Source: an uncultured Clostridia bacterium
Lineage (GTDB): Bacteria > Bacillota > Clostridia > Christensenellales > CAG-138
NCBI GenBank assembly: GCA_947306125.1
Contig: CAMZFO010000001.1
Span: 3,153-67,152 of the forward strand
DNA length: 64,000 bases
Direction: 5' to 3'
Position numbers and translations under genes: made by a program. Each line of letters starts with the position of its first letter. The stretch's first letter is position 1. The notes below the pieces were generated by a model. That model saw only the letters and a list, made by a program, of their open reading frames with translations, searched no databases and was not told the origin of the DNA. Shown here piece by piece: positions 1-23,777 of the stretch.

Positions 1-1887
1 CCTGAACACGAAATGACAGCCCTCGATATCGCACACGGGCAGCGGGCAGTCGGCGCCGTGCTCGACGACCTCCTCGCCCGAGTAATAGCCGGAGAACGTG
101 ACGGTATAGTAATTCCTCGACCACGTGGCGTTAACGGCCATATCATCCGTAACGCAGGAGATATCGGTATCCCAGCCGATGAACGTCCAGCCCTCGCGCA
201 CGGGCGCTTCGGGCTCGGGACAGGGGCTGCCGTCGGGGACCTCGTATTCGGCTATGAGATGCCCCATGCCGTCGAAGAATCCGACGATGTGGTTCACGAT
301 CCACGTCGCGTTGACGGTCATATCCTCCGTCACGCAGGAGATATCGGCGTCCCAGCCGGCAAAAGTCCAGCCCTCGAGGACGGGCGTCTCGGGCTCGGGA
401 GAGGGGCTGCTCCAGCCTACGGAATAGGAGGCAAGCTCATTCCCCTGCCCGTCGGTGAAAATAACGGTGAACGTCTCCGCCTCGTATATGGCGGTGAACA
501 CGGTGTTGCCCGTGACGCATTCGGGATTGCCGTCCCAACCGATAAAGGTATAATGCTCATGCTCCGGCGCCTCGGGCGGGATCACGGCGCCGTTATACTC
601 GACCTCGAAGGATTCGATCACGGCGTCATCTATGGGATCGTAGAAAACGGCGGTGCAGCGGTCTATCTCGTAATCCACGGCAACGGTCACGTCGGAGGTG
701 ACGCACTTGCCGTCCCAGGGCTCGCCGTTCACGGTGAACGCATAGTGCAGGCCCTCGCCGTCCTCAAAGACGGGCAGCTCGGCGTCGCCGCCGAAGGGGA
801 CGCAGTCGACCCCCGTATACACGCCGACGTAATCGACCACGGCTCCCTCCTGCGCGTATACCTGCACGCAGTCGAGGCTGATCTCATACTGGTCAGTGCT
901 GTTGAAATGGCGGAAGGCGATGCGGATCGTTTCGTCGCGGTAATCGGTCAGATCCAGCCTGTACGTTGTGGCCTCGCCCGTGGAGAGCGTCTCGGGCATG
1001 ATCTCGTCCAGCGTTAAAGGATCGTCCTCAGGGCCCGCGAAGACGGCAAAGTGCTCGTCCGAATACTCAGAATCGACTGACTTGACGGTAAATTCGACCG
1101 ATGAAATGCCGTGGGGAAGCTTGAAGGCGGGCGAAACGGCCCAGTTATCGGGCTCGAGCGGACCAACGTCGGACATCCAGGAGCAGGAATAGATCGAGCC
1201 CCTGCCCTCGATGACTTCCTCTGTATCATACGCCCACTTCCAGCACTGGGCGTCCCCGTCCGCGTCAACGAAGGTCCAGCCCTCGGCTTCGGGATCGGTC
1301 TCGAAATACCAGCCGACGAAGCGGCCGTCGGGAGCAACGGTTGGCTCGGGAGTGGCGGTGGGCACGGGAGTTTCCGTGGGCTCGACGTAAACGTGGATGA
1401 AGTCGTTCGCGATATCATACTCTATCGGCTGCTCCTCGCCGCCAACGGGATAGAACACGAAGGTCTCGATCTCGAAGCAGACTTCGATATCGTTGGGAAT
1501 AGACCCATGGGAATCGAAGGTCGCCTTGAAAAGGTATCCCTCGCCCGATATGGGCTCCGTGGCGCAGATGAAGCCGACCGCGATCTCACCCGCGGCGCTC
1601 TCGTTCAACACGGTCACGGCGTCGTCGGGACAGTTTTTGAGCACGTCGAGCTTCGCAAGCTTTTTGACGCTGAGACAGCTCGAATCATACCGCAGGCGAG
1701 CCGTCATGGAATGCGCCTGATAGCTGCCGGAGACCTTTACGGAAACTTCCGCGAGCCGGGTATTCAGATCATACGAGGTCTCGACGGTGAACTGCACGGG
1801 GTCGCCCTTTTCCGCAGCGGCGGGAAAGACGCAGAGAAGCATTGCGGCGGCAAGCAGCAATGCCGAAAAGGATCTGAGTTTAGTCAT
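1..1887 (-). CDS. Secreted multidomain surface protein, C-terminal part beyond the window edge (signal peptide, cohesin-like module, choice-of-anchor-J/cleaved-adhesin-like module, Listeria-Bacteroides Flg_new repeats)
   Basis: Minus-strand frame is open from ATG 1887 (AAGGAGG SD about 10 nt upstream) to position 1. Hand translation at six spots found no stops: MTKLRSFSALLLAAAMLLCVFPAAAEKGDPVQFTVETSYDL..., ...FVGWYFETDPEAEGWTFVDADGDAQCWKW...LEPDNW, ...IGWDTDISCVTDDMAVNATW. It is absent from the ORF track because it has no stop in the window. The + ORFs 13..1017 and 1111..1929 are its antisense shadows. Confidence 0.8.
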   Translation of the reverse strand, partial: MTKLRSFSALLLAAAMLLCVFPAAAEKGDPVQFTVETSYDLNTRLAEVSVKVSGSYQAHSMTARLRYDSSCLSVKKLAKLDVLKNCPDDAVTVLNESAAGEIAVGFICATEPISGEGYLFKATFDSHGSIPNDIEVCFEIETFVFYPVGGEEQPIEYDIANDFIHVYVEPTETPVPTATPEPTVAPDGRFVGWYFETDPEAEGWTFVDADGDAQCWKWAYDTEEVIEGRGSIYSCSWMSDVGPLEPDNWAVSPAFKLPHGISSVEFTVKSVDSEYSDEHFAVFAGPEDDPLTLDEIMPETLSTGEATTYRLDLTDYRDETIRIAFRHFNSTDQYEISLDCVQVYAQEGAVVDYVGVYTGVDCVPFGGDAELPVFEDGEGLHYAFTVNGEPWDGKCVTSDVTVAVDYEIDRCTAVFYDPIDDAVIESFEVEYNGAVIPPEAPEHEHYTFIGWDGNPECVTGNTVFTAIYEAETFTVIFTDGQGNELASYSVGWSSPSPEPETPVLEGWTFAGWDADISCVTEDMTVNATWIVNHIVGFFDGMGHLIAEYEVPDGSPCPEPEAPVREGWTFIGWDTDISCVTDDMAVNATWSRNYYTVTFSGYYSGEEVVEHGADCPLPVCDIEGCHFVFR

Positions 1888-1944
1888 TTAGACCTGTCCT
1901 CCTTGGGTGATACGATGGGAAGCGGTTAAAAGGCCGCGATGATG

Positions 1945-1973
1945 ATTTTATCATAGTTGCATCTCCGGCGCAA
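1945..1973 (-). promoter_or_regulatory. Sigma-A-type promoter of the 1..1887 gene
   Basis: Minus strand reads TTGCGC-17 nt-TAAAAT with TGA immediately upstream of the -10 (extended -10). It lies about 55 nt upstream of ATG 1887. Confidence 0.5.
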
Positions 1974-1998
1974 GGTCGCAATGCCGGGTTTTGGTTAA

Positions 1999-2031
1999 GG
2001 AAATAAGGCAAAAAGAGGCTCCCGGAGCCTT
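1999..2031 (-). terminator. Rho-independent terminator after the 2058..5018 gene
   Basis: Minus strand: GCTCCCGG-GGAAGGCT-CCGGGAGC followed by CTCTTTTTG, 27 nt after the stop. Confidence 0.7.
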
Positions 2032-2057
2032 CCCCGGGAGCTGCGCAGGCTTACGCT

Positions 2058-5018
2058 TCAGCTGTTGGTTATTATCTTATAGATCGCGGCGATGTCGCGC
2101 ACGTCCACCTTCCACTCATCATTGGCGTCGGCGTTGAGCATTCCGAGCACGGATATCTGCGGGTTTTCGCCGTTCAGATACATTGCGAGTATGGTCACGT
2201 CCGCCATTGTGACGAGCCCGTCGCAGTCCACGTCGCCCGCGAGGTAATCGGGGCCCTTGGCGTAAACGGCCTTTATGGTCACGTCATGCGCTATAAACTC
2301 CACGTTCTTGCTCCAGCCCGTGAAAACGCAGCCCTCGCGGGTCGGTTCCTCGGGAGGAGTGGCGGGATTGCCGTAGCGCACGGTCTGGGTGGATAGCACG
2401 GTCCCGTCCCAATCGACGAAAATTACCGTGCAGTCTATGCTGTTGGCGGCGGCGCTGACTACTACCGTCACGTCGGAGGTGACGCACTCGCCGTCCCAAT
2501 ACTCGCCGTCGACCATGAAGGTGTAATGGAGATACTGCGAGGGGTAAACGGGCAGCTCGCAGGCCTCGCCGTAATTGACAACGACCGTGCCCGTGTAGGC
2601 GCCGGTAAAGGTGACGGTGCAGACCGTGACGTATTCCCAAAGCGCGTTGACCGTGAGATCCCCAGTTATGCAGGAGAAATCAGCGTCCCAGCCTATGAAT
2701 ATCTCGCCCGGCTCCGCGTACGGGGGCTCCGGCTCGACGGCGGCGGTGAGGTAGGTAACAAGCTGCGAGCTTATGATGTTCCCGTGACCGTCGGTGAAAT
2801 TAACGGCAAACTTCTTCGGCGCATATAGCGCGTTGACGGTCATATCCTCGGTGACGCAGGAAATATCCGCATCCCAGCCGGTGAAGCTGTAGCCGTAGTG
2901 GTCGGGAGGAGTCGGAGTTATTGCCGGTCCGCCTATCGGGGCGACAACATCCGCAATGAGCTCTCCTGTCATTGAATCATAGAACGATATCACACATTCA
3001 ACGCGGGTATATAGCGCGTTGACAGTAAGGTCATCCTTTATGCAGGAGAAATCCGCGTCCCAGCCGGTAAATGCATAAGTGAAATGCTCCGGAATCTCGG
3101 GTTCTTCCGCCGGTTCGCCATGCCTTATCTCCTGCTCGGAAATAAGCTCGCCGGTAAGCGAATCTATGAAAGTGACCGTGTAGGTGTTAATGTCCAGACC
3201 AACGAAAACCGTTACGTCCTCCGTTATGTTCGTTCCGTCCCAAGGCTCGCCGTTGACTGTGAATGTATAGTGAATCCCTTCTCCCTCAAATACGGGGAGT
3301 ACAGCGTCATATCCATACTGTACGGATTGAGTATTTGTATAAGCCCCGGTATAGGTCACGGTGACGAAAACCGGATCGTAAACGGCATTGATCTCCATAT
3401 CCGATTTGACGCAAGAGAAATCCTTATCCCATCCGGCAAAAACGTATCCGATATGCTCCGGAGCATCCGGCGCAGAAGCAGCTTCGCCGTGGGTTATCTG
3501 CTGTTCGGAAATAACAGTCCCTGAAACAGAATCAATGAAAGTTACACAGTAAACATTGACTTCGAGCCCAACCTCGACAGTTATATCCCCCGTTACGTTC
3601 GTACCATCCCAAGGCTCACCGTTAAGCGTAAAGGTATAGTGCAAGCCCTCGCCATCAAATACGGGGAGAATCGCGTCATCTCCCGGTACTACAGCCTGCG
3701 TCCCGTTGTAAACTCCGGTAAAAGTTACCGTGCAAGCGTTGCTTGGGATAAAGTATACTTTGCCGGGAACGCAGGTGATCTGCTCTTCGGGGATGACTAC
3801 CCAGTAGGGAGATTCCTGAACGAAGAGGTTGGAGTAGTTCATGATGATGTTTATGGGAAGGTAGTAACCGTTATCATCACGCAATACGCCTGTATCATAT
3901 GAAGCGGGGATATCGGTCCACCTATATGTGTAACGAGCGAACTCGCCGCCGAACTGCAGACCGTTGTTAGCCATAACGTTCAGGTTGCAGTTGATGCCGG
4001 CCCTGTCGTAGATGTTGCCCTCAATGGTGCCTGGGATGGAACCGGTGGCAACGTAGTTCATGGTGATGTTGAAGCCGGGTATAGCGGAACCGGTGGGATA
4101 CTCTTGCTGCTCTTCGTAATAAGCATTTATCCAGTTCATCATAAGCCTAAGGTCTGAATGTGGGTCTTCATCCTCACTCGCACAGGCAATGGTCTCCATG
4201 TACTCTGTGGGGAACTCGATAGCCATATCGGCGGAGTTCAGAGAAGCGTTCTCGCTGATGGCAAGATACCAGTTGAACTCGTCGCCAACAACCGCATCCT
4301 TTTGATCAACTGTTTCACCTGTATATGTGAGGTGATACTCATTGGGCTCTTCGGGAGCAGCGCCGAAGCCGGTAACGATGACCTTGGGGTTGGTGAGCTG
4401 AATGTTTTCGGGAGCATAATCCGTGGTGGAATCAACACAGGATGCGATGGGGCAGGTCATCTTCATCTCGAAGGTGGTGTCGTACTGAGGCAGAGCAGTG
4501 AATGTGTACCTGAGGCGCATCAGCGATCCGCCGAGAAGGATACCTCCGGTGCTTTCATAACCATCAGCATGCTTGGTGGAAAACTGGAACGATGTATACC
4601 ACTTGCCCTCTTCTCCGTACTGTTGAATGGGAGCAACGCTAGATTCGCCGCAATGCCCCATGGGATAAACAATGCAATTATCAATGACATCCGTTGAACC
4701 CGCAGTCGCAGCGTTCAGCACCCTATAGAGACTTCCAATGAAATTGTACTGTGCCTGAACAATGAAGTAATCGTGATCAAACTCGATCAGGAACGCGGAG
4801 GCAACCATGTGGGAATTCGCTTTGATTACGATGTCCATGAAGCCGGTGTTGTCACCAACAGAGGGAGAATTCAAGGTTACAGTGGGGCTCGTGAGGATGA
4901 GCTGATACTCATCATTAACTGCCCTTGACGGCTCATCATTCAGCGTACCCGCAAACACGTTTCCGAACGATGCGAAAACAAAGAGAATAGATAGCAATAT
5001 AGCGGCGTATCTTTTCAT
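2058..5018 (-). CDS. Secreted dockerin-bearing repeat protein (two cohesin-like N-terminal modules, multiple Flg_new repeats, C-terminal dockerin)
   Basis: 986-aa ORF with signal peptide MKRYAAILLSILFVFASFGNVFAG. It carries repeated ~70-aa units with the G(Y/F)xFxGWDxDFSC signature. The C-terminus GDVDCDGLVTMADVTILAMYLNGENPQ...ADANDEWKVDVRDIAAIYKII is a duplicated Ca-binding F-hand, the dockerin pattern. Confidence 0.9.
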   Translation of the reverse strand: MKRYAAILLSILFVFASFGNVFAGTLNDEPSRAVNDEYQLILTSPTVTLNSPSVGDNTGFMDIVIKANSHMVASAFLIEFDHDYFIVQAQYNFIGSLYRVLNAATAGSTDVIDNCIVYPMGHCGESSVAPIQQYGEEGKWYTSFQFSTKHADGYESTGGILLGGSLMRLRYTFTALPQYDTTFEMKMTCPIASCVDSTTDYAPENIQLTNPKVIVTGFGAAPEEPNEYHLTYTGETVDQKDAVVGDEFNWYLAISENASLNSADMAIEFPTEYMETIACASEDEDPHSDLRLMMNWINAYYEEQQEYPTGSAIPGFNITMNYVATGSIPGTIEGNIYDRAGINCNLNVMANNGLQFGGEFARYTYRWTDIPASYDTGVLRDDNGYYLPINIIMNYSNLFVQESPYWVVIPEEQITCVPGKVYFIPSNACTVTFTGVYNGTQAVVPGDDAILPVFDGEGLHYTFTLNGEPWDGTNVTGDITVEVGLEVNVYCVTFIDSVSGTVISEQQITHGEAASAPDAPEHIGYVFAGWDKDFSCVKSDMEINAVYDPVFVTVTYTGAYTNTQSVQYGYDAVLPVFEGEGIHYTFTVNGEPWDGTNITEDVTVFVGLDINTYTVTFIDSLTGELISEQEIRHGEPAEEPEIPEHFTYAFTGWDADFSCIKDDLTVNALYTRVECVISFYDSMTGELIADVVAPIGGPAITPTPPDHYGYSFTGWDADISCVTEDMTVNALYAPKKFAVNFTDGHGNIISSQLVTYLTAAVEPEPPYAEPGEIFIGWDADFSCITGDLTVNALWEYVTVCTVTFTGAYTGTVVVNYGEACELPVYPSQYLHYTFMVDGEYWDGECVTSDVTVVVSAAANSIDCTVIFVDWDGTVLSTQTVRYGNPATPPEEPTREGCVFTGWSKNVEFIAHDVTIKAVYAKGPDYLAGDVDCDGLVTMADVTILAMYLNGENPQISVLGMLNADANDEWKVDVRDIAAIYKIITNS

Positions 5019-5066: not shown

Positions 5067-5095
5067 ATTATAATTATTAAAGGTGGATATGTCAA
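5067..5095 (-). promoter_or_regulatory. Consensus sigma-A promoter of the 2058..5018 gene
   Basis: Minus strand: TTGACA-17 nt-TATAAT (tgtcaa at 5090-5095, attata at 5067-5072). The leader is only about 40 nt. Confidence 0.75.
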
Positions 5096-5261: not shown

Positions 5262-5366
5262 TGCCGCCCGTTCTTCGTCTTGCAGACCATTCACCGGATG
5301 GTCTGCATTGCTTTGCAACCGACTCCGAACCCTTACACAATGGGAGCCGTTGGTCGGTCGGTCGCC
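5262..5366. repeat. Diverged partial copy of the intergenic hairpin repeat (contains CAGACCAT-N7-ATGGTCTG)
   Basis: gccgcccgttcttcgtcttgCAGACCATtcaccggATGGTCTGcattgctttgcaacc...ttggtcggtcggtcgcc aligns by eye with 5553-5656 at roughly 75% identity. Confidence 0.7.
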
Positions 5367-5454: not shown

Positions 5455-5656
5455 AAGGGTTGTCTTTCCCCGGCTTGGGAGGAGGTAAGTGCTTGGAAAG
5501 CTCCCTCATCCACCCCCGACCTGAAGGTCGGCGGTCCCCGGAGGGCGGGCCCGGCCGCCCGTTTTCGGACTTTCAGACCATTCACCGGATGGTCTGAATT
5601 GCTCCGCAACCGTCCTCAAACCCCGCAGGGGAAGGCTTTTTGTCGGTCGGTCGCCG
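5455..5656. repeat. Intergenic hairpin-rich repeat, copy A (about 200 bp, core about 146 bp)
   Basis: Core 5503-5648 differs from 12711-12856 by only 3 substitutions and 1 T indel (direct comparison). It contains stems CCGACC/GGTCGG, GGGCGG/CCGCCC and CAGACCAT/ATGGTCTG. Confidence 0.85.
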
Positions 5657-8433: not shown

Positions 8434-11400
8434 TCAGCTTGCGGCTATTATCGCGTATATCGCGGCGATATCTCTGATATCCACCGTGCCGTCCTCGTTG
8501 GCGTCGGCGTTTGCCATGCCGGGCTCTGTTATCTGCGGATTCTCGCCGTTCAGGTACATGGAAAGCAGCGTCACGTCCGCCATGGTGACGAGCCCGTCGC
8601 CGTCAAGATCGCCGGGGGTGAGCGTGGGCTCGGGAGCGTAGATCGGCTCTATCACTATATCCTCGGTTATGCAGGAAAGGTCGAGCTCCGGCCATGCGGC
8701 GGTATAGCCCTCGAGCTCCGGTATCTCGGGGAGCTCGTAATCGGTGAGGGCTTCGCCGTTGTAGACGTAGTAGATCGTATCGAAGCCGTCCTCGATGTGG
8801 AAGGTTACGGAATGGATGTAATCCTCGTCCTCCTCCCACTTGGCGTAGATGTAGGTATCCTCGGTCAAAGGAGTGTCGAAGCTCCACTCCGTGCCATCCT
8901 CGCAGCCGTAGGTCGTGTACCAGCCTCCGAAGAGCATTCCGGTGCGGGTGGGGTCGTAGGGAGCGGCAGCTGTCGTGCCGGGGACAATGCCCGTCTGAGT
9001 CTCTATCTCACTGCCGCCCATGGTGCAGAATATGAGGGAGCAGCCGAACACGCCGCTTGCCGCGACAGCCGAATTGGAGTTATAGGTGATGACAGCGTTC
9101 TTGTGCTCGTCCTCGGTGACGGTCACACCCAGAGCGCCGCCCGTGATACCCTCAAACACCGCGTCGTTATGGAAGGAGCTTACGGTGATATCGTATTCCG
9201 CATCGGGATCGGCGATTATGGCTGCGGAATCGCTCGTGGGAACAGCGGTGAGGGTTGCGGTTTCGGCCGAATCAACGGTCACGCAGCTCCAATCGGTCGT
9301 CATATCGTTGCGGCAGACGGTAGCGGACTGCGCGCAGGGCTCGGTGCATGTCGTGGAGACGCTTCCGTCGCTGCCGAAGACGAATTCAGCGCCGCTCCCT
9401 GCGGTCGAATCCGCCCAGAAGCCGTTTTCGCCACTGCATACCAGCGAGGCATGGTATTCCTCCAACGGTTCATCGGTAACTACACTGTTACACTCCTCGG
9501 GAGTGATCGTGTAGCTTGCGCCCTCAGAAAGGACCGGCACGTCGAACTCAAGCTGCAGCTCGGAGTTGATCTCGTTCATGCACTGACCTTCACCGATCTC
9601 CAGCTCGCCCTCGGTCTTTTCGCCGTATTCAATAACTGCATACGCGCCGTTCGACCCGTCGATCCTGAAGGAACTAAAGTTGGTTGTAAGGGTAGTGTAA
9701 ACATCGTCCTCAATCTCTCGCGCCGCTGCACCGGATGTGTATCCCTTACCGGTGAGGTAGTCTTGAATGTTTAGATGGTCGTATGCCAGGCTTTCGACGG
9801 TAAGCGCATATTTGATAAAGGTTATTCTTTGTGTTCCGTTATTATAATCAGTGACATCAAGCCCGAGGTTTTTGTAGGTTTCGCGTTCAATATCTAAATG
9901 GATGAAAGCGCCAATTCTATTAGGATCAGCAATATTGATTCTGTATGCACTGTCAGTAAGTGTATAACCACAAGCAACAACTGCGTGACCTCCTGAAATT
10001 TCATATTTTTCTCCAGCCCAATTGTAGATATTAAAGCCAACCACAACAGGATAGTTGCTTGAATCGATAGCGTCTATGACTCTTTTGCAATTGACTTCTT
10101 CGGTGTTGTCAGGAGTCCTTGCTATTCTTGTTGTTGGGGATGACTGCAAAATCTGGTAGTATTCTATTAAATTTCGCACTGCCTTATTATTCGCCGGCTT
10201 CTTAAGTGCAAAAGTGGTTGTACAATTACTCTGAAAAAAGGACGGCGTAATCCTATTGGCAAGAATTAATGAAGCAACTGCAGACATCCCAAAGCAGGAA
10301 GCGTTATACTTTGTGTCAAGTTCTCCATTTAATGTAGCTTTGTCACTTCCAAATGCTTTTTCCAAGGCATTTTTATACTCGCCTGTGATAAGCTTCCCGT
10401 ACGTAGGGGTATAAAACAAACCTTGGTCCAAGTAGTGATAAAAGTTATCACTGCTGTTATTGAAGCTATACCAATCCTCGTGAATGTCGAAACCGGGTTT
10501 CCACTTTGCATACAAACAAATATTGGAGTATACCGGGTATCCGTGAAAACTATTCGATGCATTAAACCAAGGCTGTCCTGTACATTCAGGATTTGAATAC
10601 CATCCTCGAAAAGTATAGCCTTCCCTTCTGGGATTGTTTGGCGCATAAGCAGGTTCTCCGGGATCAACTACCTGGGTCGTATACGTACTGCCGCTCCCTG
10701 TGTTCAGCATAAACTTAACGAGCAGTTTGCCGGATGAATTGCCAAGCTTCGCAATAGGATACCCATTCCATGTAGTTTCTCCATTGGGTGCCCATTCGGA
10801 AACGTGAGCGGATGTGTAGTAAATGCAGAAATTGGGAGCGCAGGAATCGAATACATAGGATCCGAACGAGGAGGGCGGCGCGCCGAGGAACGTCGCGCTT
10901 GTGAGCGACGTGCAGTGATAGAACGCATAACTGCCTATGCTCGTCACGCCGTCCGGGATGGTCACGGAGGTGAGCGAGTTGCAGTAATCGAACGCCCGAT
11001 AGCCTATGCTCGTCACGCTGTCCGGGATGGTCACGGAAGTGAGCGAGCGGCAGCTGGAGAACGCCCTACCGCCTATGCTCGTCACGCTATCCGGGATGGT
11101 AACGGTGGTGAGCGAGCTGCAGTCTTCGAACGCATAACTGCCTATGCTCGTCACACCGTTCCCGATAGTCACGGAGGTAAGCGAGTAGCAGTACTGGAAA
11201 GCATTATCGCCTATGCTCGTCACGCTGTCCGGGATGGTAACGGTGGTGAGCGAGCTGCAGCCACTGAACGCATATACGCCTATGCTTGTAACGCCGTTCC
11301 CAATGGTCACGGCGGTGAGTGAGTCGCAGTATCCGAACGCACTATCGCCAATGCTCGTCACGCTGTCCGGGATGGTCACGGAGGTGAGCGCGCTGCAGTC

Positions 11401-12312
11401 TTCGAACGCATAATCGCCAATGCTTGTAACGCCGTTCCCGATGGTCACGGAGGTGAGCGAGCTGCAGTAAGTGAATGCATATCCGCCTGTGCTCATCACG
11501 CCGTTCCCTATGGTCACGGAGGTGAGCGAGTAGCAGTAAGCGAACGCATAAGTGCCTATGCTCGTCACACTGTCAGGGATTGTCACGGAGGTGAGCGAGC
11601 TGCAGTGGTAGAACGTATATTCACCTATACTCGTTACGCTGTTGCCGATGGTCACGGAGGTGAGCGAGATGCAGTTAGAGAACGCATAATCGCATATGCT
11701 CGTCACGCTGCTTGGAATTATATAATCACCCGTTTTTCCTCCGGGACACCGAATCAATACGGTTACCGCTTTATTAAAAAGCACACCGTCAATACATGTA
11801 TAATACTGATTGTTAACATCAACATTAATAGAGGTGAGCGATTCGCAGTAAGCGAACGCATTATCGCCTATGCTCGTCACACCGCTGCCGATCGTCACGG
11901 CGGTGAGCTTGCTGCAGCCATAGAACGCATAATCGCCTATGCTCGTCACGCTGTTGCCGATAGTCACGGAGGTGAGATTTGTGCAGTAACAGAACGCATA
12001 ATTTCCTATGCTTGTCACGCTGTTTCCGATATCAACGGCTTTGACGCTCGTTCGATAAGAATACCACGGCACGGATGAATAGCTTGACCAATTGGTCATA
12101 TCCCCCGTACCGGTGATCTCGAGCACGCCGGTTTCGGTGTCAAGAGTCCACGTAAGGTCAGCCCCGCAGGTGCCGGAATACACCGCACGAGTCGGCTCGG
12201 TTATTTCGGTCTTCTTTGGCTCTTCGTGTTCCGTTACCGTTCCGGCGAAAATGCTGCCGAACGAGCCGAAAACAAACAGGACTGCGAGGATAAATGCTGT
12301 AAGCTTTCTCAT
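8434..12312 (-). CDS. Secreted BspA-type LRR protein with embedded Cys/His peptidase-like cassette, Flg_new repeats and C-terminal dockerin
   Basis: 1292-aa ORF with signal peptide MRKLTAFILAVLFVFGSFGSIFAG. It has about 17 units of a 23-aa repeat (VTIGNSVTSIGDYAFxxCSSLTS). Peptidase-like motifs are NASCFGMS ... SGGHAVVACGY. The C-terminus GDLDGDGLVTMADVTLLSMYLNGENPQ...ADANEDGTVDIRDIAAIYAII is dockerin-like. Confidence 0.9.
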   Translation of the reverse strand: MRKLTAFILAVLFVFGSFGSIFAGTVTEHEEPKKTEITEPTRAVYSGTCGADLTWTLDTETGVLEITGTGDMTNWSSYSSVPWYSYRTSVKAVDIGNSVTSIGNYAFCYCTNLTSVTIGNSVTSIGDYAFYGCSKLTAVTIGSGVTSIGDNAFAYCESLTSINVDVNNQYYTCIDGVLFNKAVTVLIRCPGGKTGDYIIPSSVTSICDYAFSNCISLTSVTIGNSVTSIGEYTFYHCSSLTSVTIPDSVTSIGTYAFAYCYSLTSVTIGNGVMSTGGYAFTYCSSLTSVTIGNGVTSIGDYAFEDCSALTSVTIPDSVTSIGDSAFGYCDSLTAVTIGNGVTSIGVYAFSGCSSLTTVTIPDSVTSIGDNAFQYCYSLTSVTIGNGVTSIGSYAFEDCSSLTTVTIPDSVTSIGGRAFSSCRSLTSVTIPDSVTSIGYRAFDYCNSLTSVTIPDGVTSIGSYAFYHCTSLTSATFLGAPPSSFGSYVFDSCAPNFCIYYTSAHVSEWAPNGETTWNGYPIAKLGNSSGKLLVKFMLNTGSGSTYTTQVVDPGEPAYAPNNPRREGYTFRGWYSNPECTGQPWFNASNSFHGYPVYSNICLYAKWKPGFDIHEDWYSFNNSSDNFYHYLDQGLFYTPTYGKLITGEYKNALEKAFGSDKATLNGELDTKYNASCFGMSAVASLILANRITPSFFQSNCTTTFALKKPANNKAVRNLIEYYQILQSSPTTRIARTPDNTEEVNCKRVIDAIDSSNYPVVVGFNIYNWAGEKYEISGGHAVVACGYTLTDSAYRINIADPNRIGAFIHLDIERETYKNLGLDVTDYNNGTQRITFIKYALTVESLAYDHLNIQDYLTGKGYTSGAAAREIEDDVYTTLTTNFSSFRIDGSNGAYAVIEYGEKTEGELEIGEGQCMNEINSELQLEFDVPVLSEGASYTITPEECNSVVTDEPLEEYHASLVCSGENGFWADSTAGSGAEFVFGSDGSVSTTCTEPCAQSATVCRNDMTTDWSCVTVDSAETATLTAVPTSDSAAIIADPDAEYDITVSSFHNDAVFEGITGGALGVTVTEDEHKNAVITYNSNSAVAASGVFGCSLIFCTMGGSEIETQTGIVPGTTAAAPYDPTRTGMLFGGWYTTYGCEDGTEWSFDTPLTEDTYIYAKWEEDEDYIHSVTFHIEDGFDTIYYVYNGEALTDYELPEIPELEGYTAAWPELDLSCITEDIVIEPIYAPEPTLTPGDLDGDGLVTMADVTLLSMYLNGENPQITEPGMANADANEDGTVDIRDIAAIYAIIAAS

Positions 12313-12362
12313 GGGAACTCCTTCTCCCGGGCGGGGCCGCGGGTAAAAATATTACTGATTTA

Positions 12363-12390
12363 ATTATAAATGCGTATATTGATTTGTCAA
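12363..12390 (-). promoter_or_regulatory. Consensus sigma-A promoter of the 8434..12312 gene
   Basis: Minus strand: TTGACA-16 nt-TATAAT, about 50 nt upstream of ATG 12312. Confidence 0.7.
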
Positions 12391-12661
12391 TGAATAATCG
12401 GGGATATGGGAAAAATCTTTTTACAACCCCCTCAGAAGAACAAAGGCGCTCCGCGTCACCCTCCGGTCATCCTCGCTCCGCTCGGCTGACAGCCTCCCTT
12501 TACAAGGGCGGCCTTTTGGTCAGTCGCCGCACACACCGGCCTTCCCCCCTTGTGGGGCGCGCAGCGTTAAGAAGAGGCAGCGGTGCTGCGTCTTTAGCGG
12601 AGCGCCGCGGAAGCTCTGTTTCAGGGTTACTGTCGGCGCGGCAAAAGGATCGATGACGGAT

Positions 12662-12862
12662 GAGGGTTTCCCTTCCCCTGATTGGGGAGAGAAAAGTGCT
12701 TGGGAAGCATCCCTCATCCACCCCCGACCTAAAGGTCGGCGGTCCCCGGAGGGCGGTCCCGGCCGCCCGTTTTCGGACTTTCAGACCATTCACCGGATGG
12801 TCTGAATTGCTCCGCAACCGTCCTCAAACCCCGCAAGGGAAGGCTTTTGTCGGGTTTCCGCG
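12662..12862. repeat. Intergenic hairpin-rich repeat, copy B
   Basis: Same orientation as copy A. Core 12711-12856 is about 97% identical to 5503-5648, and the left part (12662-12710) is about 75% similar to 5455-5502. Confidence 0.85.
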
Positions 12863-16556: not shown

Positions 16557-16585
16557 TTGACAACTCATCGGACTAATGATATATT
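16557..16585 (+). promoter_or_regulatory. Sigma-A promoter of the CHAP-dockerin gene
   Basis: TTGACA-17 nt-TATATT, 65 nt upstream of ATG 16650 (AAAGGAGG SD). Confidence 0.65.
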
Positions 16586-16649: not shown

Positions 16650-17807
16650 ATGAAAAAGCTGTTTACCGTTTTGCTTTCAATCGCGATCATCTTCGGTTTT
16701 CTTCCTTTCGGGACAAGGCCTGCAAAGGCGATGAATATGCCTTACGTTCCCACGTCCTTTTATATAGGAAGCGAGTATTATACACGGCTGCGGGAAGTGG
16801 TCCTGACCGGCGATCAGCGGACGGATATAGTTAACGTCGCGGTATCGCAGATGGGTTATCACGAGGGCGATTCATTGGAGGAGCTTGACGGAAGCGCGTT
16901 GGAGGGCAGCGCGGATTATACCGAATACGGCTATTGGTGGGGTACCGAGGTGCTCGGCGAACCGGAGGGGCACTACAGCGCATGGTGCGCGATCTTCGTA
17001 AGCTGGTGCGCAAGGCAGGCGCAGGTGCCCGTGACGATACTCAAGAATTCATCCGGAGCAAACTGCTCCCCCGCAAGGTTCGATCTTACCTATTATTCGG
17101 GGAGCGTCTACACCCCGCAGGTGGGCGACCTCTTTTTCAAATCCGATTGGAGCCACGTGGGTCTTGTGCGCTCGGTGGACGGCGATAAATTCACCACCAT
17201 AGAGGGCAACTGCACCAAGATGGTAAAGAGCAGGAGGCTCAATATCGCAGATTACAGATTCGGCGTGCCGGAATACAATACCTCCACGCTCAGTTATTCT
17301 ATCGGGTTCGACGCGAACGGCGGCGAGGGCTCCGTTCCCGGTTGCTCCGTCCTTTACGACGGCGATTTTACCCTTCCCGGCAGCGACAGCTTCAGCCGCG
17401 CAGGATACGTGCTTGCCGGATGGAGCGTCAGGCGCGCTTCGGACGATAAATGGTTCGCGGAAGGCGCAGTATGGGAAACCGAAGAGGCGATAGTATCGGA
17501 CGGATACGCGAAAAGCGTTTTCCCCGCAGGCTCGGCCCTGATACTGGACAGGCTGTGGCGGGAAGGCGGCGCGGTCAACGACACATTGGTGTTTTACGCT
17601 GTATGGAAAGGGATGGGAGTCATCCCCGGGGACGTTGACTGCGACGGTTCCGTTACCATGGCCGACGTCACCCTGCTGCAGATGTATCTTAACGGAGAAG
17701 CTCCCATAGTTTCGGCGGACGGTATGCAAAATGCGGAGGCAAATCTCGACGGCCTTCTGGATATCAGGGATATATCCGCCATTTACGGAATTATCGCGGC
17801 GGGCTGA
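16650..17807 (+). CDS. Secreted CHAP-domain peptidoglycan amidase/peptidase with Flg_new repeat and C-terminal dockerin
   Basis: 385 aa with a signal peptide. CHAP motifs are WCAIFVSWCARQ (Cys), WSHVGLV (His) and TIEGN. An ...AGYVLAGWS... repeat is present. The C-terminus GDVDCDGSVTMADVTLLQMYLNGE...AEANLDGLLDIRDISAIYGII is dockerin-like. Confidence 0.85.
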   Translation: MKKLFTVLLSIAIIFGFLPFGTRPAKAMNMPYVPTSFYIGSEYYTRLREVVLTGDQRTDIVNVAVSQMGYHEGDSLEELDGSALEGSADYTEYGYWWGTEVLGEPEGHYSAWCAIFVSWCARQAQVPVTILKNSSGANCSPARFDLTYYSGSVYTPQVGDLFFKSDWSHVGLVRSVDGDKFTTIEGNCTKMVKSRRLNIADYRFGVPEYNTSTLSYSIGFDANGGEGSVPGCSVLYDGDFTLPGSDSFSRAGYVLAGWSVRRASDDKWFAEGAVWETEEAIVSDGYAKSVFPAGSALILDRLWREGGAVNDTLVFYAVWKGMGVIPGDVDCDGSVTMADVTLLQMYLNGEAPIVSADGMQNAEANLDGLLDIRDISAIYGIIAAG

Positions 17808-18878: not shown

Positions 18879-18892
18879 GATACCTTATGCGC

Positions 18893-18921
18893 TTGACAAT
18901 TTTTGTATACAATAGTAGAAT
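18893..18921 (+). promoter_or_regulatory. Sigma-A promoter of the 18978..21638 gene
   Basis: TTGACA-17 nt-TAGAAT. Confidence 0.65.
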
Positions 18922-18977
18922 TACTTGTGTATCAATTACACGGATGGAGCAAAGCCGTCCGGGAAAGGGAGAATAAT

Positions 18978-21638
18978 ATGAAAAGATCCATTGCACTGTT
19001 GGTCGCAGCGCTGCTTGCGTTCGGAGCGTTTTCCGGCGTATTCGCCGGGAGCTACGAGCCCGCAGACACTCCCACTCAAGGCTACTGCGGCCCGAGTATA
19101 GCATGGGAGTACTCTAATGGCAGGCTCACTCTTACCGGCTCCGGCAACATGACGGAAAACACCTCGTACAGCAATACGTGGGCGCCGTGGTATGCCCTGC
19201 GTGAGCAGATAACCTCCGTTACCATGAGCGCGGATATAACCAGTATAAGCGCTTATGCCTTCAACGAGCTGAGCCACATAACATCGGTAACGATACCCTC
19301 ACACGCGGAGAGCATAGGCATAGGCGCCTTCAACTGGTGCTCGAGCCTGAGGAACATTTACGTCGGCACGGGCAGCAGCCATTTCGTTTCCGTTGACGGC
19401 GTTGTGTTCAGCAGCGACCTCAGGACTCTGGCGTTCTTCCCCACCGGAAGGAGCGGCGAATACACCGTTCCCGAAGGGACGGAAAAGATAGGAAATCACG
19501 CCTTCTTCTCCTGCATAATCAATAAGGTGACCGTGCCCGAGGGCGTTACGGCAATAGAAAGCGCCGGCTTCATGTCCTGCATGGAGATGACGGAGGTACT
19601 GCTTCCCGAATCGCTCGTTTCCATTGCGGACAAGGCCTTTTATAACTGCTGTGAGCTCACCTCGGTCGTACTGGGTGAAAACGTTGCGGTGCTCGATACC
19701 CTGTGCTTCGCGTACTGCAGACAGCTGACGGTTGCGGAGGCTTACGGCCCCGCTCCCACCTCATACGGCTACAGCATGTTCCTTGAAACCGGCGAGGGCT
19801 TCCGCATCCGCTATCCTTATGAGCTGCGCTCCTCGTGGGATACCAATTATAACGGCTACTGGACGGTTTCGAATCACGAAAGATACCGCCTTGAGCCCCG
19901 CTATCCCGCGGGAGGCACGGCGGGCGACAACATAACCTGGACCTGGGATCAGGATGCTCTTACGCTCACCGTGACCGGCACGGGCGCCATGCCCGATTTC
20001 ACAAACGACGGCGGCGCTCCCTGGAGCTGTATAAACGAGATGGCCCAAACCGTCGTGATAGGCGAGGGCATAACGGATATAGGCGATTACGCCTTCACCT
20101 CGTTCTATGCCCTGACCGACCTCACGATACCCTCTACCGTAAAGCGCATTGGCGTGCAGGCGTTTGAAAACTGCTCCGCGCTCCAGACCGTAACGCTCCC
20201 CGCCGGGATCACCTCAGTGGATTACGGCGCTTTCCAGTACTGCTATAACCTCACCTCCGCGGTATTCCTCGGCGAGCCGCCCGCAGTATTCGGCGAAGAC
20301 GTGTTCTATGAGTGCGGAGACGGCTTCTGCATTGGCTACTTTTCGGCATACGCCTCCGCCTGGGCGCCCAACGGCGAGATATTCTGGAACGGCTATTTCA
20401 TAAGGCCCGTGGACGCGGAGGTCAATTACGGCATATGTGGCCCTTCGCTCGCGTGGCAGTTTGACGAGGAGACGGGCGTGCTTACCATAACCGGCACGGG
20501 CTGGATGTACAGCTTCTATGATCTTGAGGAAGCGCAGCCCTGGGATGAGTATAAGGATAACATAACCTCAGTTGTGATCGAGGAAGGCGCGGAGAGCATA
20601 GGCCGGAACGCGTTTGCGCAGTATCCCGCGATCGAAACGGTCTATATCCCCACTACTGTCAGCAGCATCGAGGATTACTGCTTCACCGCCTGTCCGCAGC
20701 TTCAGAGCATATTCGTGGCCGAGGGCAGCGAGTACTATTATGATATCGACGGCGTGCTCTGTGGCTTCAATGTGGGCGGCGGAGATATCCCCATTTCGAA
20801 AGACGGCGACGACGATGAGCCCGTTACCGTTTACCTCATCCGCTATCCGGCAGGCAGGAGCGGCGCTTACACCGTTCCCGCAGAGGTGACGAATATCGGC
20901 AGCGGCGCGTTCATAATGTGCAGCGGGCTCACCGGTATCGCTCTCCATAACGGTATCACGGAGATCGGTTCGGAGGCGTTCATTTACTGCACCGCGCTCA
21001 CTTCTGTCACCATTCCCGGCAACGATATGAGCATAAACGGATATGCTTTCGCCGGCAGCGGGCTCATTTCGCTGGTGTTCGAGGAGGGAAGCCATTGGAC
21101 GGGCGATTACAGCTTTGCCGAGTGCGCCTCGCTCACAAGCATCACGTTCCCCTCCACTTTCGTTTACATAGGCTACCGCGCATTTGAGAACTGCACCGCG
21201 CTCGAGGAGATAATTCTGCCCGAATCCTTAGCGGATATCGAGTATTACGCCTTCGGCGGCTGCACGAGCCTCTCCCGCGCGGTATTCATGGGCCCCGTCC
21301 CCGAGTATTACAGCATCCCCATTTTCGACGACTGCGCGGAGGATTTCTGCATCTACTATGCCGAGGAATACGCCTCCTCCTGGGCGCCCGAAGGCGAGAC
21401 GGAGTGGGAGGAATATCCCATAGCGCCCTTGAGCGAAATGCCGCCGGCGATCGCTCCCGGCGATCTTGACGGCGACGGCGTCATTTCCATGTCGGACGTC
21501 ACGATGCTCTCAATGTTCCTGAACGGCGAGAACCCGCAGATCTCCTCCTCCGGCCTGCAGGCCGCCGACGCGAACGGCGACGGCACGGTGGATATCCGCG
21601 ATATCGCGGCGATATACCAGAAGATAGCACAGAGCTGA
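18978..21638 (+). CDS. Secreted LRR (BspA-like, divergent repeat type) protein with C-terminal dockerin
   Basis: Start set at ATG 18978 (MKRSIALLVAALLAFGAFSGVFAG, GGGAG SD) rather than the track start 18903. It has three LRR blocks, each introduced by a ...CGxxxxWxxD...LTxTGTG.M module. The C-terminus GDLDGDGVISMSDVTMLSMFLNGENPQ...ADANGDGTVDIRDIAAIYQKI is dockerin-like. Confidence 0.9.
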   Translation: MKRSIALLVAALLAFGAFSGVFAGSYEPADTPTQGYCGPSIAWEYSNGRLTLTGSGNMTENTSYSNTWAPWYALREQITSVTMSADITSISAYAFNELSHITSVTIPSHAESIGIGAFNWCSSLRNIYVGTGSSHFVSVDGVVFSSDLRTLAFFPTGRSGEYTVPEGTEKIGNHAFFSCIINKVTVPEGVTAIESAGFMSCMEMTEVLLPESLVSIADKAFYNCCELTSVVLGENVAVLDTLCFAYCRQLTVAEAYGPAPTSYGYSMFLETGEGFRIRYPYELRSSWDTNYNGYWTVSNHERYRLEPRYPAGGTAGDNITWTWDQDALTLTVTGTGAMPDFTNDGGAPWSCINEMAQTVVIGEGITDIGDYAFTSFYALTDLTIPSTVKRIGVQAFENCSALQTVTLPAGITSVDYGAFQYCYNLTSAVFLGEPPAVFGEDVFYECGDGFCIGYFSAYASAWAPNGEIFWNGYFIRPVDAEVNYGICGPSLAWQFDEETGVLTITGTGWMYSFYDLEEAQPWDEYKDNITSVVIEEGAESIGRNAFAQYPAIETVYIPTTVSSIEDYCFTACPQLQSIFVAEGSEYYYDIDGVLCGFNVGGGDIPISKDGDDDEPVTVYLIRYPAGRSGAYTVPAEVTNIGSGAFIMCSGLTGIALHNGITEIGSEAFIYCTALTSVTIPGNDMSINGYAFAGSGLISLVFEEGSHWTGDYSFAECASLTSITFPSTFVYIGYRAFENCTALEEIILPESLADIEYYAFGGCTSLSRAVFMGPVPEYYSIPIFDDCAEDFCIYYAEEYASSWAPEGETEWEEYPIAPLSEMPPAIAPGDLDGDGVISMSDVTMLSMFLNGENPQISSSGLQAADANGDGTVDIRDIAAIYQKIAQS

Positions 21639-21651
21639 CACAAGCATCATA

Positions 21652-21685
21652 CGGCGCGCTTCCTGCAGAGGCGCGCCGGCTTTTT
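21652..21685 (+). terminator. Rho-independent terminator
   Basis: CGGCGCGC-11 nt loop-GCGCGCCG followed by GCTTTTT. It is a near-copy of the terminator at 23791-23821. Confidence 0.75.
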
Positions 21686-21706
21686 CATCGTTCTTCGTTC
21701 GCAATA

Positions 21707-21734
21707 TTGACAAACCGAAGCGATGCGATAAAAT
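21707..21734 (+). promoter_or_regulatory. Sigma-A promoter of the 21774..23777 gene
   Basis: TTGACA-16 nt-TAAAAT, with AAAGGAGG SD before ATG 21774. Confidence 0.6.
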
Positions 21735-21773
21735 GGATCCATAACCATATATAATCAAAAAAAGGAGGCAGCC

Positions 21774-23777
21774 ATGAAAAAGACTTTAGCGATCCTTATT
21801 GCAGTCCTGCTCGTGTTCGGCTCGTTCTGCGGCGCTTTTGCCGGCAGCGTGAGCGGAACCGAAAGGAAAGAAAAGCCCGAGCCGCTTAAGGAGGTCTATT
21901 CCGGCACCTGCGGCGCAAACCTCAACTGGACTCTTGATACCGGAACCGGCGTGCTGGAGATCACCGGCACGGGGGATATGACCGATTGGGTGAGCGAGCT
22001 ATACGTTCCGTGGCGCGAGCATATTCCATATATAAAAACTGTTGTTGTCGGAGAAGACGTGACGAAAATAGGCAACTCTGCATTTAAAAAATGCACCGAG
22101 CTCACCGCCGTGACCATCCCGAACAGCGTGACGAGCATAGGCAAAGCTGCTTTTGAATACTGCACATCGCTCACCGCCGTGAGTATTCCAGCAGGCGTGA
22201 CGAATATAATCGGATCCCCGTTCCTTGACTGCTCCGCTCTTACGGTAATAACAGTCGATGGGAACAACCAATACTACTCCTCCGAGGGCGACGTGCTTTT
22301 CAATAAAGCGGGAACCGAATTGATCCGGTGTCCAGAAGGGAAAGCGGGAGATTACACGATCCCCGAAAGCGTTGTAATCATCAACGATTATGCGTTCAGC
22401 CACTGTTCCCTGCTCACTTCTGTGACCATTCCCGAAGGTGTTGAGAGTATTGGAGAGTATGCTTTCCAGAGCTGCAGCTCGCTCACCTCCGTGAATATCC
22501 CAGGCAGCGTGATGAGCATAAGCGAAGCCGCGTTCCTTAACTGCACCTCGCTTACCTCCGTAATCATCGGGAACGGCGTGACGAGCATAAGCTGGTTTGC
22601 TTTCAAGCTCTGCAGCTCACTCACATCCGTGACCATACCGGACAGCGTGACGAGCATAGGCAATTATGCGTTCTCGAATTGCAGCTCGCTCACATCCGTG
22701 ACCATACCGGACAGCGTGACGAGCATAGGCAATTATGCGTTCGATTACTGCAGCTCGCTCGCATCCGCGACCATCGGGAATAGCGTGACGAGCATAGGCT
22801 TTGGAGCGATCTGGTACTGCAGCTCGCTCACCTTTATAGATGTTGCTGTTGATAATCAAGCATATTCCTCCCTTGACGGAGTGCTGTTTAATAAGGATGG
22901 GAGTGAGCTGATCTGTTACCCGGGTGGAAAGGTCGGCGCTTATTCCATACCGGAAAGTGTGACTAGCATCGGCGACGGGGCGTTCGGCGGGTGTAGTTCG
23001 CTCATGTCCGTGATCATCCCGGACAGCGTAACGAGCATTGGTTATCTGGCGTTCATTGACTGCCGCTCGCTCACATCCGCGACCATACCGGACAGCGTTA
23101 CGAGCATGGGCCGTAGTGCGTTCTATAACTGCAGATCACTCACCTCCGCGACCATCGGTAACAGTGTGACGAGCATAGACACTAACGCGTTCTATGACTG
23201 CAGATCGCTCACATCCGTGACAATCGGTAACAGTGTTACGAGCATAGGTACTGACGCGTTCTCTAACTGCATCTCGCTCACCTCCGTGAATATCCCGGAC
23301 AGCGTGACGAGCATAAGCAATTATGCGTTCTATTGCTGCACCTCGCTTGCCTTTGTGACCATAGGAAACGGCGTGACGAGCATAGGCAAGTATGCGTTCT
23401 ATTACTGCAGATCGCTCACTTCCGCCGTTTTCCTCGGGGCGCCGCCCTCTTCATTTGGATCGTCCGTGTTCAGCAACTGTGCCGCTGACTTCTGCATTTA
23501 CTACACTGAGGGCTACGCCTCCTCCTGGGCGCCTAACGGCGAGACCGAATGGCACGGATACCCCATACACATGATCGGCGGGACGGTCGCCGAGCCCGGC
23601 GATCTTGACGGCGACGGCGTCATTTCCATGTCGGACGTCACGACGCTCTCTATGTTCCTGAACGGCGAGAACCCGCAGATCTCCTCCTCCGGCCTGCAGG
23701 CCGCCGACGCGAACGGCGACGGCACGGTAGATATAAGGGATATCGCGGCGATATACCTGAAGATAGCACTGAGCTGA
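21774..23777 (+). CDS. Secreted BspA-type LRR protein with C-terminal dockerin (paralog of 8434..12312)
   Basis: 667 aa with signal peptide MKKTLAILIAVLLVFGSFCGAFAG. The N-terminal module VYSGTCGANLNWTLDTGTGVLEITGTGDMTDW is shared with 8434..12312. It has about 20 units of the 23-aa LRR. The C-terminal dockerin is nearly identical to that of 18978..21638. Confidence 0.9.
   Translation: MKKTLAILIAVLLVFGSFCGAFAGSVSGTERKEKPEPLKEVYSGTCGANLNWTLDTGTGVLEITGTGDMTDWVSELYVPWREHIPYIKTVVVGEDVTKIGNSAFKKCTELTAVTIPNSVTSIGKAAFEYCTSLTAVSIPAGVTNIIGSPFLDCSALTVITVDGNNQYYSSEGDVLFNKAGTELIRCPEGKAGDYTIPESVVIINDYAFSHCSLLTSVTIPEGVESIGEYAFQSCSSLTSVNIPGSVMSISEAAFLNCTSLTSVIIGNGVTSISWFAFKLCSSLTSVTIPDSVTSIGNYAFSNCSSLTSVTIPDSVTSIGNYAFDYCSSLASATIGNSVTSIGFGAIWYCSSLTFIDVAVDNQAYSSLDGVLFNKDGSELICYPGGKVGAYSIPESVTSIGDGAFGGCSSLMSVIIPDSVTSIGYLAFIDCRSLTSATIPDSVTSMGRSAFYNCRSLTSATIGNSVTSIDTNAFYDCRSLTSVTIGNSVTSIGTDAFSNCISLTSVNIPDSVTSISNYAFYCCTSLAFVTIGNGVTSIGKYAFYYCRSLTSAVFLGAPPSSFGSSVFSNCAADFCIYYTEGYASSWAPNGETEWHGYPIHMIGGTVAEPGDLDGDGVISMSDVTTLSMFLNGENPQISSSGLQAADANGDGTVDIRDIAAIYLKIALS
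22620..22757 (+). repeat. Near-perfect 69-bp tandem duplication inside the LRR array
   Basis: Units 22620-22688 and 22689-22757 are identical (ctcacatccgtgaccataccggacagcgtgacgagcataggcaattatgcgttc...) except for a few bases near ttctcgaattgc versus ttcgattactgc. The repeat is in frame, one 23-aa LRR each. Confidence 0.85.

Follow-up and report, generated by a model that had tools for sequence, protein, structure and literature searches.

The window that we analyzed, a 64-kb stretch of DNA from an uncultured Clostridia bacterium, carries at its beginning (positions 1-23777, the dockerin-gene region) genes for a set of secreted proteins that, in our judgment, probably represents part of a cohesin-dockerin protein-assembly system for surface display in uncultured Clostridia of the ruminant gut. 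One dockerin subtype is found on six of these proteins, one of the six also carries a cohesin, and the cargo consists of adhesin-type domains and domains of peptide-bond hydrolases. A first-pass annotation of this DNA had suggested a cellulosome-like display system, and this still provides the best reading of the locus, since true dockerins, cargo other than carbohydrate-active enzymes (CAZymes), and a cohesin are brought together in it.

Dockerin Modules and a Divergent Cohesin

All five complete dockerin genes listed by the first-pass annotation are present as open reading frames (ORFs), two on the minus strand and three on the plus strand, and the last element of each, only a few residues short of the stop codon, is a module of about 60 residues with two F-hand repeats. 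That annotation had made its proposal depend on a match of these modules to the dockerin profile, and all five score above the gathering cut-off of Pfam Dockerin_1 (PF00404), with 25.1-46.0 bits against 22.9 bits. On the minus strand, the modules are encoded at 2061..2246 in g2058 (2058..5018; 986 amino acids; 25.1 bits) and at 8437..8622 in g8434 (8434..12312; 1292 amino acids; 39.5 bits); on the plus strand, they are encoded at 17619..17804 in g16650 (16650..17807; 385 amino acids; 26.4 bits), at 21450..21635 in g18978 (18978..21638; 886 amino acids; 46.0 bits), and at 23589..23774 in g21774 (21774..23777; 667 amino acids; 42.5 bits). A profile of the dockerin modules matches solved dockerins from Acetivibrio, Clostridium, and Ruminococcus. 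With 64-77% identity of the others to the dockerin of g8434, the modules form one closely related C-terminal subtype present on six proteins.

In the alignment, the two repeats of about 22 residues each display Asp/Asn calcium ligands at loop positions 1, 3, 5, 9, and 12, with D-x-D-x-D-G-x-x-(T/S)-x-x-D as the pattern of the first loop and (D/E)-x-N-x-D-G-x-x-D-x-x-D as that of the second; in five of the six dockerins, the ligands and the two helices are well preserved. The usual recognition positions differ between the two repeats (M-A/S-M versus I-R/Y-A), which, judging from dockerins in the literature, hints at a single rather than a dual binding mode. When the window was searched in all six frames with a hidden Markov model (HMM) made from the five modules, no additional copy was detected; all copies thus lie within positions 1-23777, and the first 24 kb are truly enriched in them. 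The subtype is rare in public data: peptide patterns derived from it found no relative in 185,579 GTDB representative genomes, a word-indexed search of a 5.8-billion-protein index with the dockerin profile returned only four fragments, and a scan of JGI metagenomes revealed one close locus (L083) and three distant ones. Look-ups of identical proteins for g2058 and for the NAPRTase of the window returned no record.

A partner module resides on the sixth gene (1..1887, minus strand), which is cut by the edge of the window. The first-pass annotation had rightly described it as a truncated, related secreted protein, but it had missed the cohesin that this gene encodes; its concern that a cohesin partner might be lacking is answered, at least in part, by this very module. 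The cut gene opens with a signal peptide, followed by the 147-residue cohesin (amino acids 27-173; 1369..1809, minus strand), a Cleaved_Adhesin/choice-of-anchor J domain (859..1305, minus strand; 64 bits with Pfam and 62 bits with NCBIfam NF038128), and Listeria-Bacteroides (Flg_new) repeats. On the single sequence, Pfam Cohesin (PF00963) stays with E=0.013 and 16.1 bits below its cut-off of 24.1 bits; a word-indexed homolog search with the module yielded nothing, and a single-sequence search of the PDB nothing useful. An exhaustive phmmer search recovered 79 relatives, with E-values down to 7.6e-87 outside the ortholog described below. All eight non-ortholog relatives that were scanned (phmmer E-values of 7.6e-87 to 1e-27) match Pfam Cohesin (E-values of 1e-20 to 7e-90), the top ones being multi-cohesin proteins. 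A profile of the module together with 26 relatives matches 20 solved cohesin sequences (best E=2.5e-17), and AlphaFold2 (AF2), run with a 27-sequence alignment of the module, produced an all-beta model with a pLDDT of 94.4. All top 50 matches listed by Foldseek for this model against the PDB are cohesins, the closest ones of type I; the best TM-score among the matches listed is 0.77, to 6kgd_A, the CaCohA2 cohesin of C. acetobutylicum. Collectively, homology search, family profile, and structural model establish that the N-terminal module of the sixth gene is a divergent cohesin, closest to type I, that is missed by Pfam alone. As standard HMM thresholds miss such a cohesin, cohesin-dockerin systems are under-counted.

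The complete form of the sixth protein can be seen in its same-species ortholog P0001 (841 amino acids), which is 99% identical across the cohesin module and is encoded on a contig (L001) with 98.65% DNA identity to window positions 1-2598. P0001 consists of a signal peptide, the cohesin, the Cleaved_Adhesin/choice-of-anchor J domain, Flg_new repeats, a MucBP-like module, and, at its end, a dockerin of the same subtype (41 bits with Dockerin_1). From this architecture it follows that the sixth gene encodes a cohesin-plus-dockerin protein. A second polypeptide that combines a cohesin with this dockerin subtype is P0031 (locus L002), with the layout Coh-X-Flg_new-Doc and a signal peptide in common with the window genes. 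The window locus thus holds a candidate socket, the cohesin, and six plugs, the dockerins, whose pairing is predicted.

Cargo, Assembly, and Competing Explanations

Following their signal peptides, three of the five complete proteins carry long BspA-type leucine-rich repeat (LRR) arrays of the LRR_5 family (PF13306): g8434, g18978, in which three LRR_5 blocks precede the dockerin, and g21774, in which a single array does so (E-values of 8e-138, 7e-93, and 2e-139). The arrays are built of 23-residue units, mirrored in a DNA repeat period of 69 nt. NCBIfam places them loosely near the HupY/LrrG adhesin, with scores so far below the equivalog cut-offs that they are not orthologs of HupY/LrrG. Flg_new repeats are present in g2058, g8434, and g16650; in g16650, they stand between the dockerin and a CHAP domain (PF05257; 38.7 bits, cut-off 26) with its catalytic residues Cys113 (AWCAIFVSW) and His169 (WSHVGLV). 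In g8434, the LRR_5 array is succeeded by Flg_new repeats, a C39/papain-like region, an unassigned beta-rich region, further Flg_new repeats, and the dockerin. While the LRR arrays, the Flg_new repeats, and the CHAP domain of the first-pass cargo list were recovered, its papain-like cassette corresponds to a sub-threshold match of Peptidase_C39_2 (E=0.0024, 18.9 bits, cut-off 24) in a candidate region at amino acids ~600-860 (9733..10515, minus strand). Plausible motifs recognized by eye place Cys673, His776, and Asp796 there, and the region had no sequence match in the PDB; we regard it as a probable papain-fold peptidase.

The N-terminal region of g2058 (amino acids 24-430; 3729..4949, minus strand) comprises two modules of about 200 amino acids ahead of the Flg_new repeats and the dockerin. 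They are weakly similar to each other (BLASTP E=4e-4), and neither homologs in a word-indexed search nor a PDB sequence match were found for them. About 40 residues at the start of a module align in register with the start of the cohesin, with an hhalign E-value of 0.036 and a probability of 1.4% (0.2% in the other alignment); the HMM of the cohesin family gave E=2.6, and a single-sequence AF2 model reached a pLDDT of 31. These modules are conceivably, though by no means certainly, two highly divergent cohesins.

The statement of the first-pass annotation that the cargo includes no recognizable glycoside hydrolase was borne out, and it extends to esterases and lyases: no such family was detected at E<=0.01 in the five dockerin proteins, nor at E<=10 in their unassigned segments. 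The same dockerin subtype occurs outside the window beside P0031 in L002, on a 1422-residue protein without known function and on a CHAP-PG_binding_1-SH3_3-Flg_new-Doc protein, in L083 on a Cleaved_Adhesin-Big_2-Flg_new-Doc protein, and on the fragment P0083 (MucBP-Doc). In the window, L002, L083, and P0083, no subtype member whose cargo could be identified carries a CAZyme. Of the dockerin-bearing CAZymes by which a cellulosome is strictly defined, no glycoside hydrolase (GH), carbohydrate esterase (CE), or polysaccharide lyase (PL) was detected among the dockerin proteins of the window, L002, and L083.

These findings lend themselves to a model for the assembly of the encoded proteins. They would first be exported via the Sec pathway, upon which their calcium-loaded dockerins would plug into cohesins. 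The cohesin-plus-dockerin protein could act as a connector, its cohesin capturing another dockerin protein while its own dockerin docks in turn, and it may bind its own kind, as Amy4 of R. bromii does. A multi-cohesin scaffoldin encoded elsewhere would anchor the assembly to the cell wall, and this scaffoldin would bear a sortase-type signal of the [S/T/P]PxTG kind, as many relatives of the window cohesin do. The adhesin-type cargo, comprising the BspA/HupY-like LRR arrays, the Cleaved_Adhesin/choice-of-anchor J domain, and the Flg_new and MucBP-like modules, would then mediate adhesion to particles, to other microbes, or to host material, coupled to the local cutting of peptidoglycan or protein and not to the breakdown of polysaccharides.

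Among the 79 relatives of the window cohesin, 24 match a regular expression for a C-terminal PxTG motif with a hydrophobic segment and a basic tail (typically RKKED), and several more do so by eye; the layout of these C-termini is that of a sortase sorting signal. The motif resembles the (S/P)PxTG class. About 20 of the 79 relatives carry a dockerin, several of them being small SP-Coh-(Flg_new)-Doc proteins. With ten cohesin-module matches in one protein (E=7.6e-87), P0002 is an anchored scaffoldin from a ruminant metagenome-assembled genome (MAG), encoded at positions 10001-15583 of L087 next to the gene of a small protein whose dockerin belongs to another subtype. P0002, P0003-P0017, and others are ruminant-MAG scaffoldins with 2-10 cohesins, often with Cleaved_Adhesin domains and Pro/Thr/Glu linkers; they share a conserved C-terminal sorting signal, ...PP(V/T)TG...GAG..(I/L)FR(K/R)KED.

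Several points weigh against a cohesin-dockerin display system of this kind. Recognition of the dockerin subtype by the window cohesin is predicted, as are the function of the CHAP domain of g16650 as a peptidoglycan peptidase or amidase and the proteolytic activity of the papain-like region of g8434, both read from motifs; that the genes are expressed at all is likewise suggested by their consensus promoters. Neither an anchoring scaffoldin nor a sortase was found among the window ORFs that were scanned. The second calcium loop of the g2058 dockerin is degenerate, reading DANDEWKVD in place of DxNxDGxxD, with Glu at position 5 and Trp at position 6, so that this module may be a one-calcium or weakened dockerin. 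Moreover, most LRR dockerins of R. flavefaciens FD-1 that were tested bound none of the tested cohesins (PMC5301203).

Could the dockerin proteins be the usual non-enzymatic and peptidase accessories of a genuine fiber-degrading cellulosome, whose GH-, CE-, and PL-dockerin enzymes and large scaffoldin are encoded elsewhere in a fibrolytic host? We view this as possible but somewhat unlikely, and we hold the same view of the idea that the window samples only the non-CAZyme half of such a system, in the way that group 4 dockerins do in R. flavefaciens. Non-CAZymes indeed make up about half of the dockerin proteins of R. flavefaciens and sort by dockerin group (PMC2930009, PMC3573020), the host is of rumen origin as judged from a PurL that is 71-79% identical to those of rumen MAGs, the cohesin family includes the ten-cohesin anchored scaffoldin from a ruminant MAG, and a secreted CBM96/DNRLRE protein is encoded in the window. 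On the other hand, not a single CAZyme is found among the subtype members with identifiable cargo, and the lysine-fermentation genes of the window and an acyl-CoA dehydrogenase gene in L002 hint, weakly and indirectly, at a metabolism of amino acids rather than of fiber. Dockerin-like modules of non-cellulosomal proteins often lack a known partner, and the dockerins studied here might be calcium-binding modules that bind no cohesin, serving as stabilizing or as cell-wall- or glycan-binding tails next to an unrelated cohesin. The single cohesin facing six dockerins in the window and the FD-1 binding data cited above (PMC5301203) fit this explanation; we nevertheless consider it very unlikely because a cohesin and this dockerin subtype twice share one polypeptide (the cut gene with its ortholog P0001, and P0031). 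Such a role is also at odds with the conserved calcium ligands and helices of five of the six dockerins and with the binding of LRR- and peptidase-dockerins to cohesins in R. bromii (PMC4611034).

Another explanation concerns the purpose of the assembly: in a contact-dependent bacteriolytic or scavenging complex, LRR proteins and other adhesins would hold prey, neighboring cells, or debris, and tethered CHAP and papain-like peptidases would cleave peptidoglycan and protein and so feed an amino-acid-fermenting host. A CHAP-Doc protein in the window and its CHAP-PG_binding_1-SH3_3-Doc counterpart in L002, the fusion of the C39-like region to an LRR array in g8434, the lysine-fermentation gene set, and the lack of CAZyme cargo in the identifiable subtype members can all be read in this way. 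CHAP and NlpC/P60 enzymes are, however, mostly autolysins for the turnover of the cell's own wall, neither an immunity gene nor a secretion-system context accompanies the genes, and the proposal draws on domain content alone; in our opinion, it is quite unlikely. A further reading is a private cohesin-dockerin code, free of CAZyme cargo, in an uncultured lineage of amino-acid-fermenting rumen Clostridia, in which single-cohesin Coh-X-Doc proteins would be daisy-chained into polymers and the code would serve solely to form adhesive assemblies that cut peptidoglycan and protein. We deem this unlikely; were it true, a cohesin-dockerin system would serve cell-cell attachment and bacteriolysis or scavenging instead of the digestion of fiber.

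Gene Organization, Expression Signals, and Host

The dense cluster of dockerin genes described by the first-pass annotation is real in that all copies fall within positions 1-23777, but it is not contiguous, being interrupted by genes for an ABC/FtsX transporter, an NAPRTase, a ferredoxin, an extracytoplasmic function (ECF) sigma factor together with a protein with one transmembrane (TM) segment, and a GT2 glycosyltransferase; a SpoIIP gene is located 3' of g21774, the last dockerin gene. The surroundings represent an ordinary chromosomal context, with no sign of a mobile element among the ORFs scanned (of those at 31422-42337, a part was covered). This latter segment (31422-42337) includes the purine biosynthesis genes for PurL and PurD and is followed closely by genes for a HerA-like ATPase and a NERD nuclease.

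Each of the five complete dockerin genes is preceded by TTGACA at -35, a spacer of 16-17 nt, and a good -10 box. The promoter-like sites of g2058 (5067..5095, minus strand; TTGACA-17-TATAAT) and g8434 (12363..12390, minus strand; TTGACA-16-TATAAT) are perfect 12/12 matches, and those of g16650 (16557..16585; TTGACA-17-TATATT with an extended TG), g18978 (18893..18921; TTGACA-17-TAGAAT), and g21774 (21707..21734; TTGACA-16-TAAAAT) lie on the plus strand. For the cut sixth gene, no strong promoter was seen by eye. Near-consensus promoters for every complete gene had been noted in the first-pass annotation, with the TTGACA hexamer ascribed to four of them where five possess it; its conclusion of strong independent expression was overstated, drawn as it was from consensus promoters only. 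It had also given each gene a terminator of its own. Terminator-like hairpins were detected by a scan after g2058 (2018..2041, minus strand), g18978 (21652..21678, plus strand), and g21774 (23790..23817, plus strand), and a clear hairpin followed by TTTT was seen by eye downstream of g8434, whereas g16650 has no convincing terminator by either approach.

A regulatory element shared by the 5' regions of all six genes was considered and rejected, as only sigma-70-type hexamers are common to them; g2058 and g8434 have more in common. Two ECF sigma factors are encoded in the window at 14754-16444 (minus strand) and 55271-56604 (plus strand), each followed by an unannotated protein. The partner of the first has 378 amino acids, with a single TM helix and an extracytoplasmic domain of about 320 residues without family match, and this gene pair is divergent to the CHAP-dockerin gene g16650. 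Control of the dockerin genes by an ECF sigma factor is without support, since these genes have sigma-A-type promoters.

The dockerin genes resemble each other at both ends. A dockerin-terminator cassette is 96% identical at the DNA level between g18978 (21456-21661) and g21774 (23595-23800), a promoter-leader-signal-peptide cassette is 87% identical between g8434 (12257-12463) and P0031 (L002, 5105-5314), and four of the proteins have near-identical signal peptides. Such constant ends, flanking cargo that varies, suggest that the family diversifies by recombination, through either cargo shuffling or gene conversion. A GC-rich repeat of about 146-190 nt is present at 5495-5640 and 12703-12848, 400-600 nt upstream of g2058 and g8434; its two copies are 96% identical and contain the hairpin CAGACCATCCGGTGAATGGTCTG. 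The core hairpin recurs at 5283-5305, and a further copy of the repeat is situated upstream of P0031 (L002, 4871-4972). We rejected a structured RNA as the identity of this repeat, since Rfam yielded no match and the predicted fold, with a z-score of -1.26, does not surpass that of shuffled sequences; the repeat might be what remains of a duplicated 5' cassette, a small mobile element, or a regulatory site that has escaped recognition.

The MAGs with 71-79% identity to PurL of the window are "Clostridia bacterium" MAGs from the rumen of buffalo, sheep, and goat, as against only about 55% identity to PurL of Oscillospiraceae, and the contig L001 and the P0002 scaffoldin stem from the same ruminant gastrointestinal metagenome project. 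A lysine-fermentation set at 57464-63180 encodes the alpha subunit of D-lysine 5,6-aminomutase, lysine 2,3-aminomutase, and a beta-keto acid cleavage enzyme (BKACE). Taken together, the PurL relatives, the SpoIIP gene, and the lysine-fermentation genes point to an uncultured, probably spore-forming member of the ruminant-gut Clostridia, and they hint that it ferments at least some amino acids. L002, where the acyl-CoA dehydrogenase is encoded, is of the same or a close lineage. At 50117-52885 (minus strand), a low-GC island (0.40 versus ~0.57) encodes the CBM96/DNRLRE protein, which is secreted, has 922 amino acids, and is devoid of a dockerin; this island may have been acquired horizontally.

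Comparison with Known Systems

The cargo had been called unusual and the question of its assembly largely open by the first-pass annotation, and both statements went too far. LRR-, peptidase-, and NlpC/P60-dockerins are documented in ruminococci (PMC2930009, PMC3573020, PMC4611034), and the cargo is therefore not unusual for the cohesin-dockerin systems of the rumen; with regard to openness, the type of cargo is already known, but the partner of many LRR dockerins is indeed still partly open (PMC5301203). R. flavefaciens FD-1 possesses 222 dockerin proteins, among them 28 LRR modules and 16 peptidase modules as well as transglutaminase-like proteins and serpins, and some of its near-identical dockerins are clustered, with a five-gene cluster combining conserved C-terminal with variable N-terminal parts (PMC2930009). 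Its NlpC/P60-XDoc protein RflaF_05439 binds the anchored ScaE (PMC3573020), as do group 4 dockerins, a peptidase dockerin among them (PMC5301203). In R. bromii, binding to several cohesins was shown for a 2xLRR dockerin and for a peptidase dockerin (PMC4611034, Table 4). Cargo of the non-CAZyme type is thus an established concept; the window would place a purely adhesin- and peptidase-based cohesin-dockerin system in a ruminant-gut Clostridia lineage without a cultured member. Since even R. flavefaciens has no known partner for most of its LRR dockerins, the set of one cohesin and six near-identical dockerins, with the cohesin next to LRR-dockerin genes, provides a convenient and directly testable case.

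In comparison with R. flavefaciens FD-1 (SIGN-LRR-Doc proteins and the transglutaminase-like-Doc cluster ORF01263-01267), the window proteins share the setting in rumen Clostridia, the signal peptide, the LRR and cysteine-peptidase cargo, and the C-terminal dockerin. Neighboring genes with near-identical dockerins, conserved C-terminal parts, and variable N-terminal parts are another common trait (PMC2930009), and so is cargo with a peptidoglycan-peptidase fold, with surface docking seen in FD-1 (PMC3573020, PMC5301203) and predicted here. In contrast to FD-1, the window comes from an uncultured, different lineage, as the ~55% identity of its PurL to that of Oscillospiraceae indicates, and its dockerin subtype was not found in the 185,579 GTDB representative genomes and is barely represented in collections of proteins and metagenomes. 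Its dockerin proteins lack an X module, each of its dockerin genes has a promoter of its own in place of a head-to-tail operon, and no CAZyme has so far been linked to the subtype.

The sixth gene resembles R. bromii Amy4, R. flavefaciens ScaC, and other adaptor scaffoldins in placing a cohesin and a C-terminal dockerin on one polypeptide, an arrangement that can bridge or multimerize dockerin proteins (PMC4611034, PMC4959524) and that in Amy4 leads to self-binding (PMC4611034). It deviates from Amy4 and ScaC in what separates the two modules, namely Cleaved_Adhesin/choice-of-anchor J, Flg_new, and MucBP-like domains instead of an amylase or a bare linker, and in its cohesin, which is N-terminal, below the Pfam threshold, and of predicted specificity. 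Ruminococcal cohesins that fall below HMM thresholds and were found by structure prediction only have been described (bioRxiv 10.64898/2026.02.05.704116). The window cohesin is akin to them in combining a sub-threshold HMM score with a confident cohesin fold, but it is near canonical type I (TM-score of 0.77 to CaCohA2), and an exhaustive sequence search suffices to recover it; within the limits of what could be tested, it lies outside the new structural groups of that preprint. With their LRR_5 arrays and Flg_new repeats, the secreted window proteins finally resemble LRR adhesins of the BspA, HupY(LrrG), and internalin type; in contrast to these, they would be attached via their dockerins and not through LPXTG, GW, or lipoprotein anchors.

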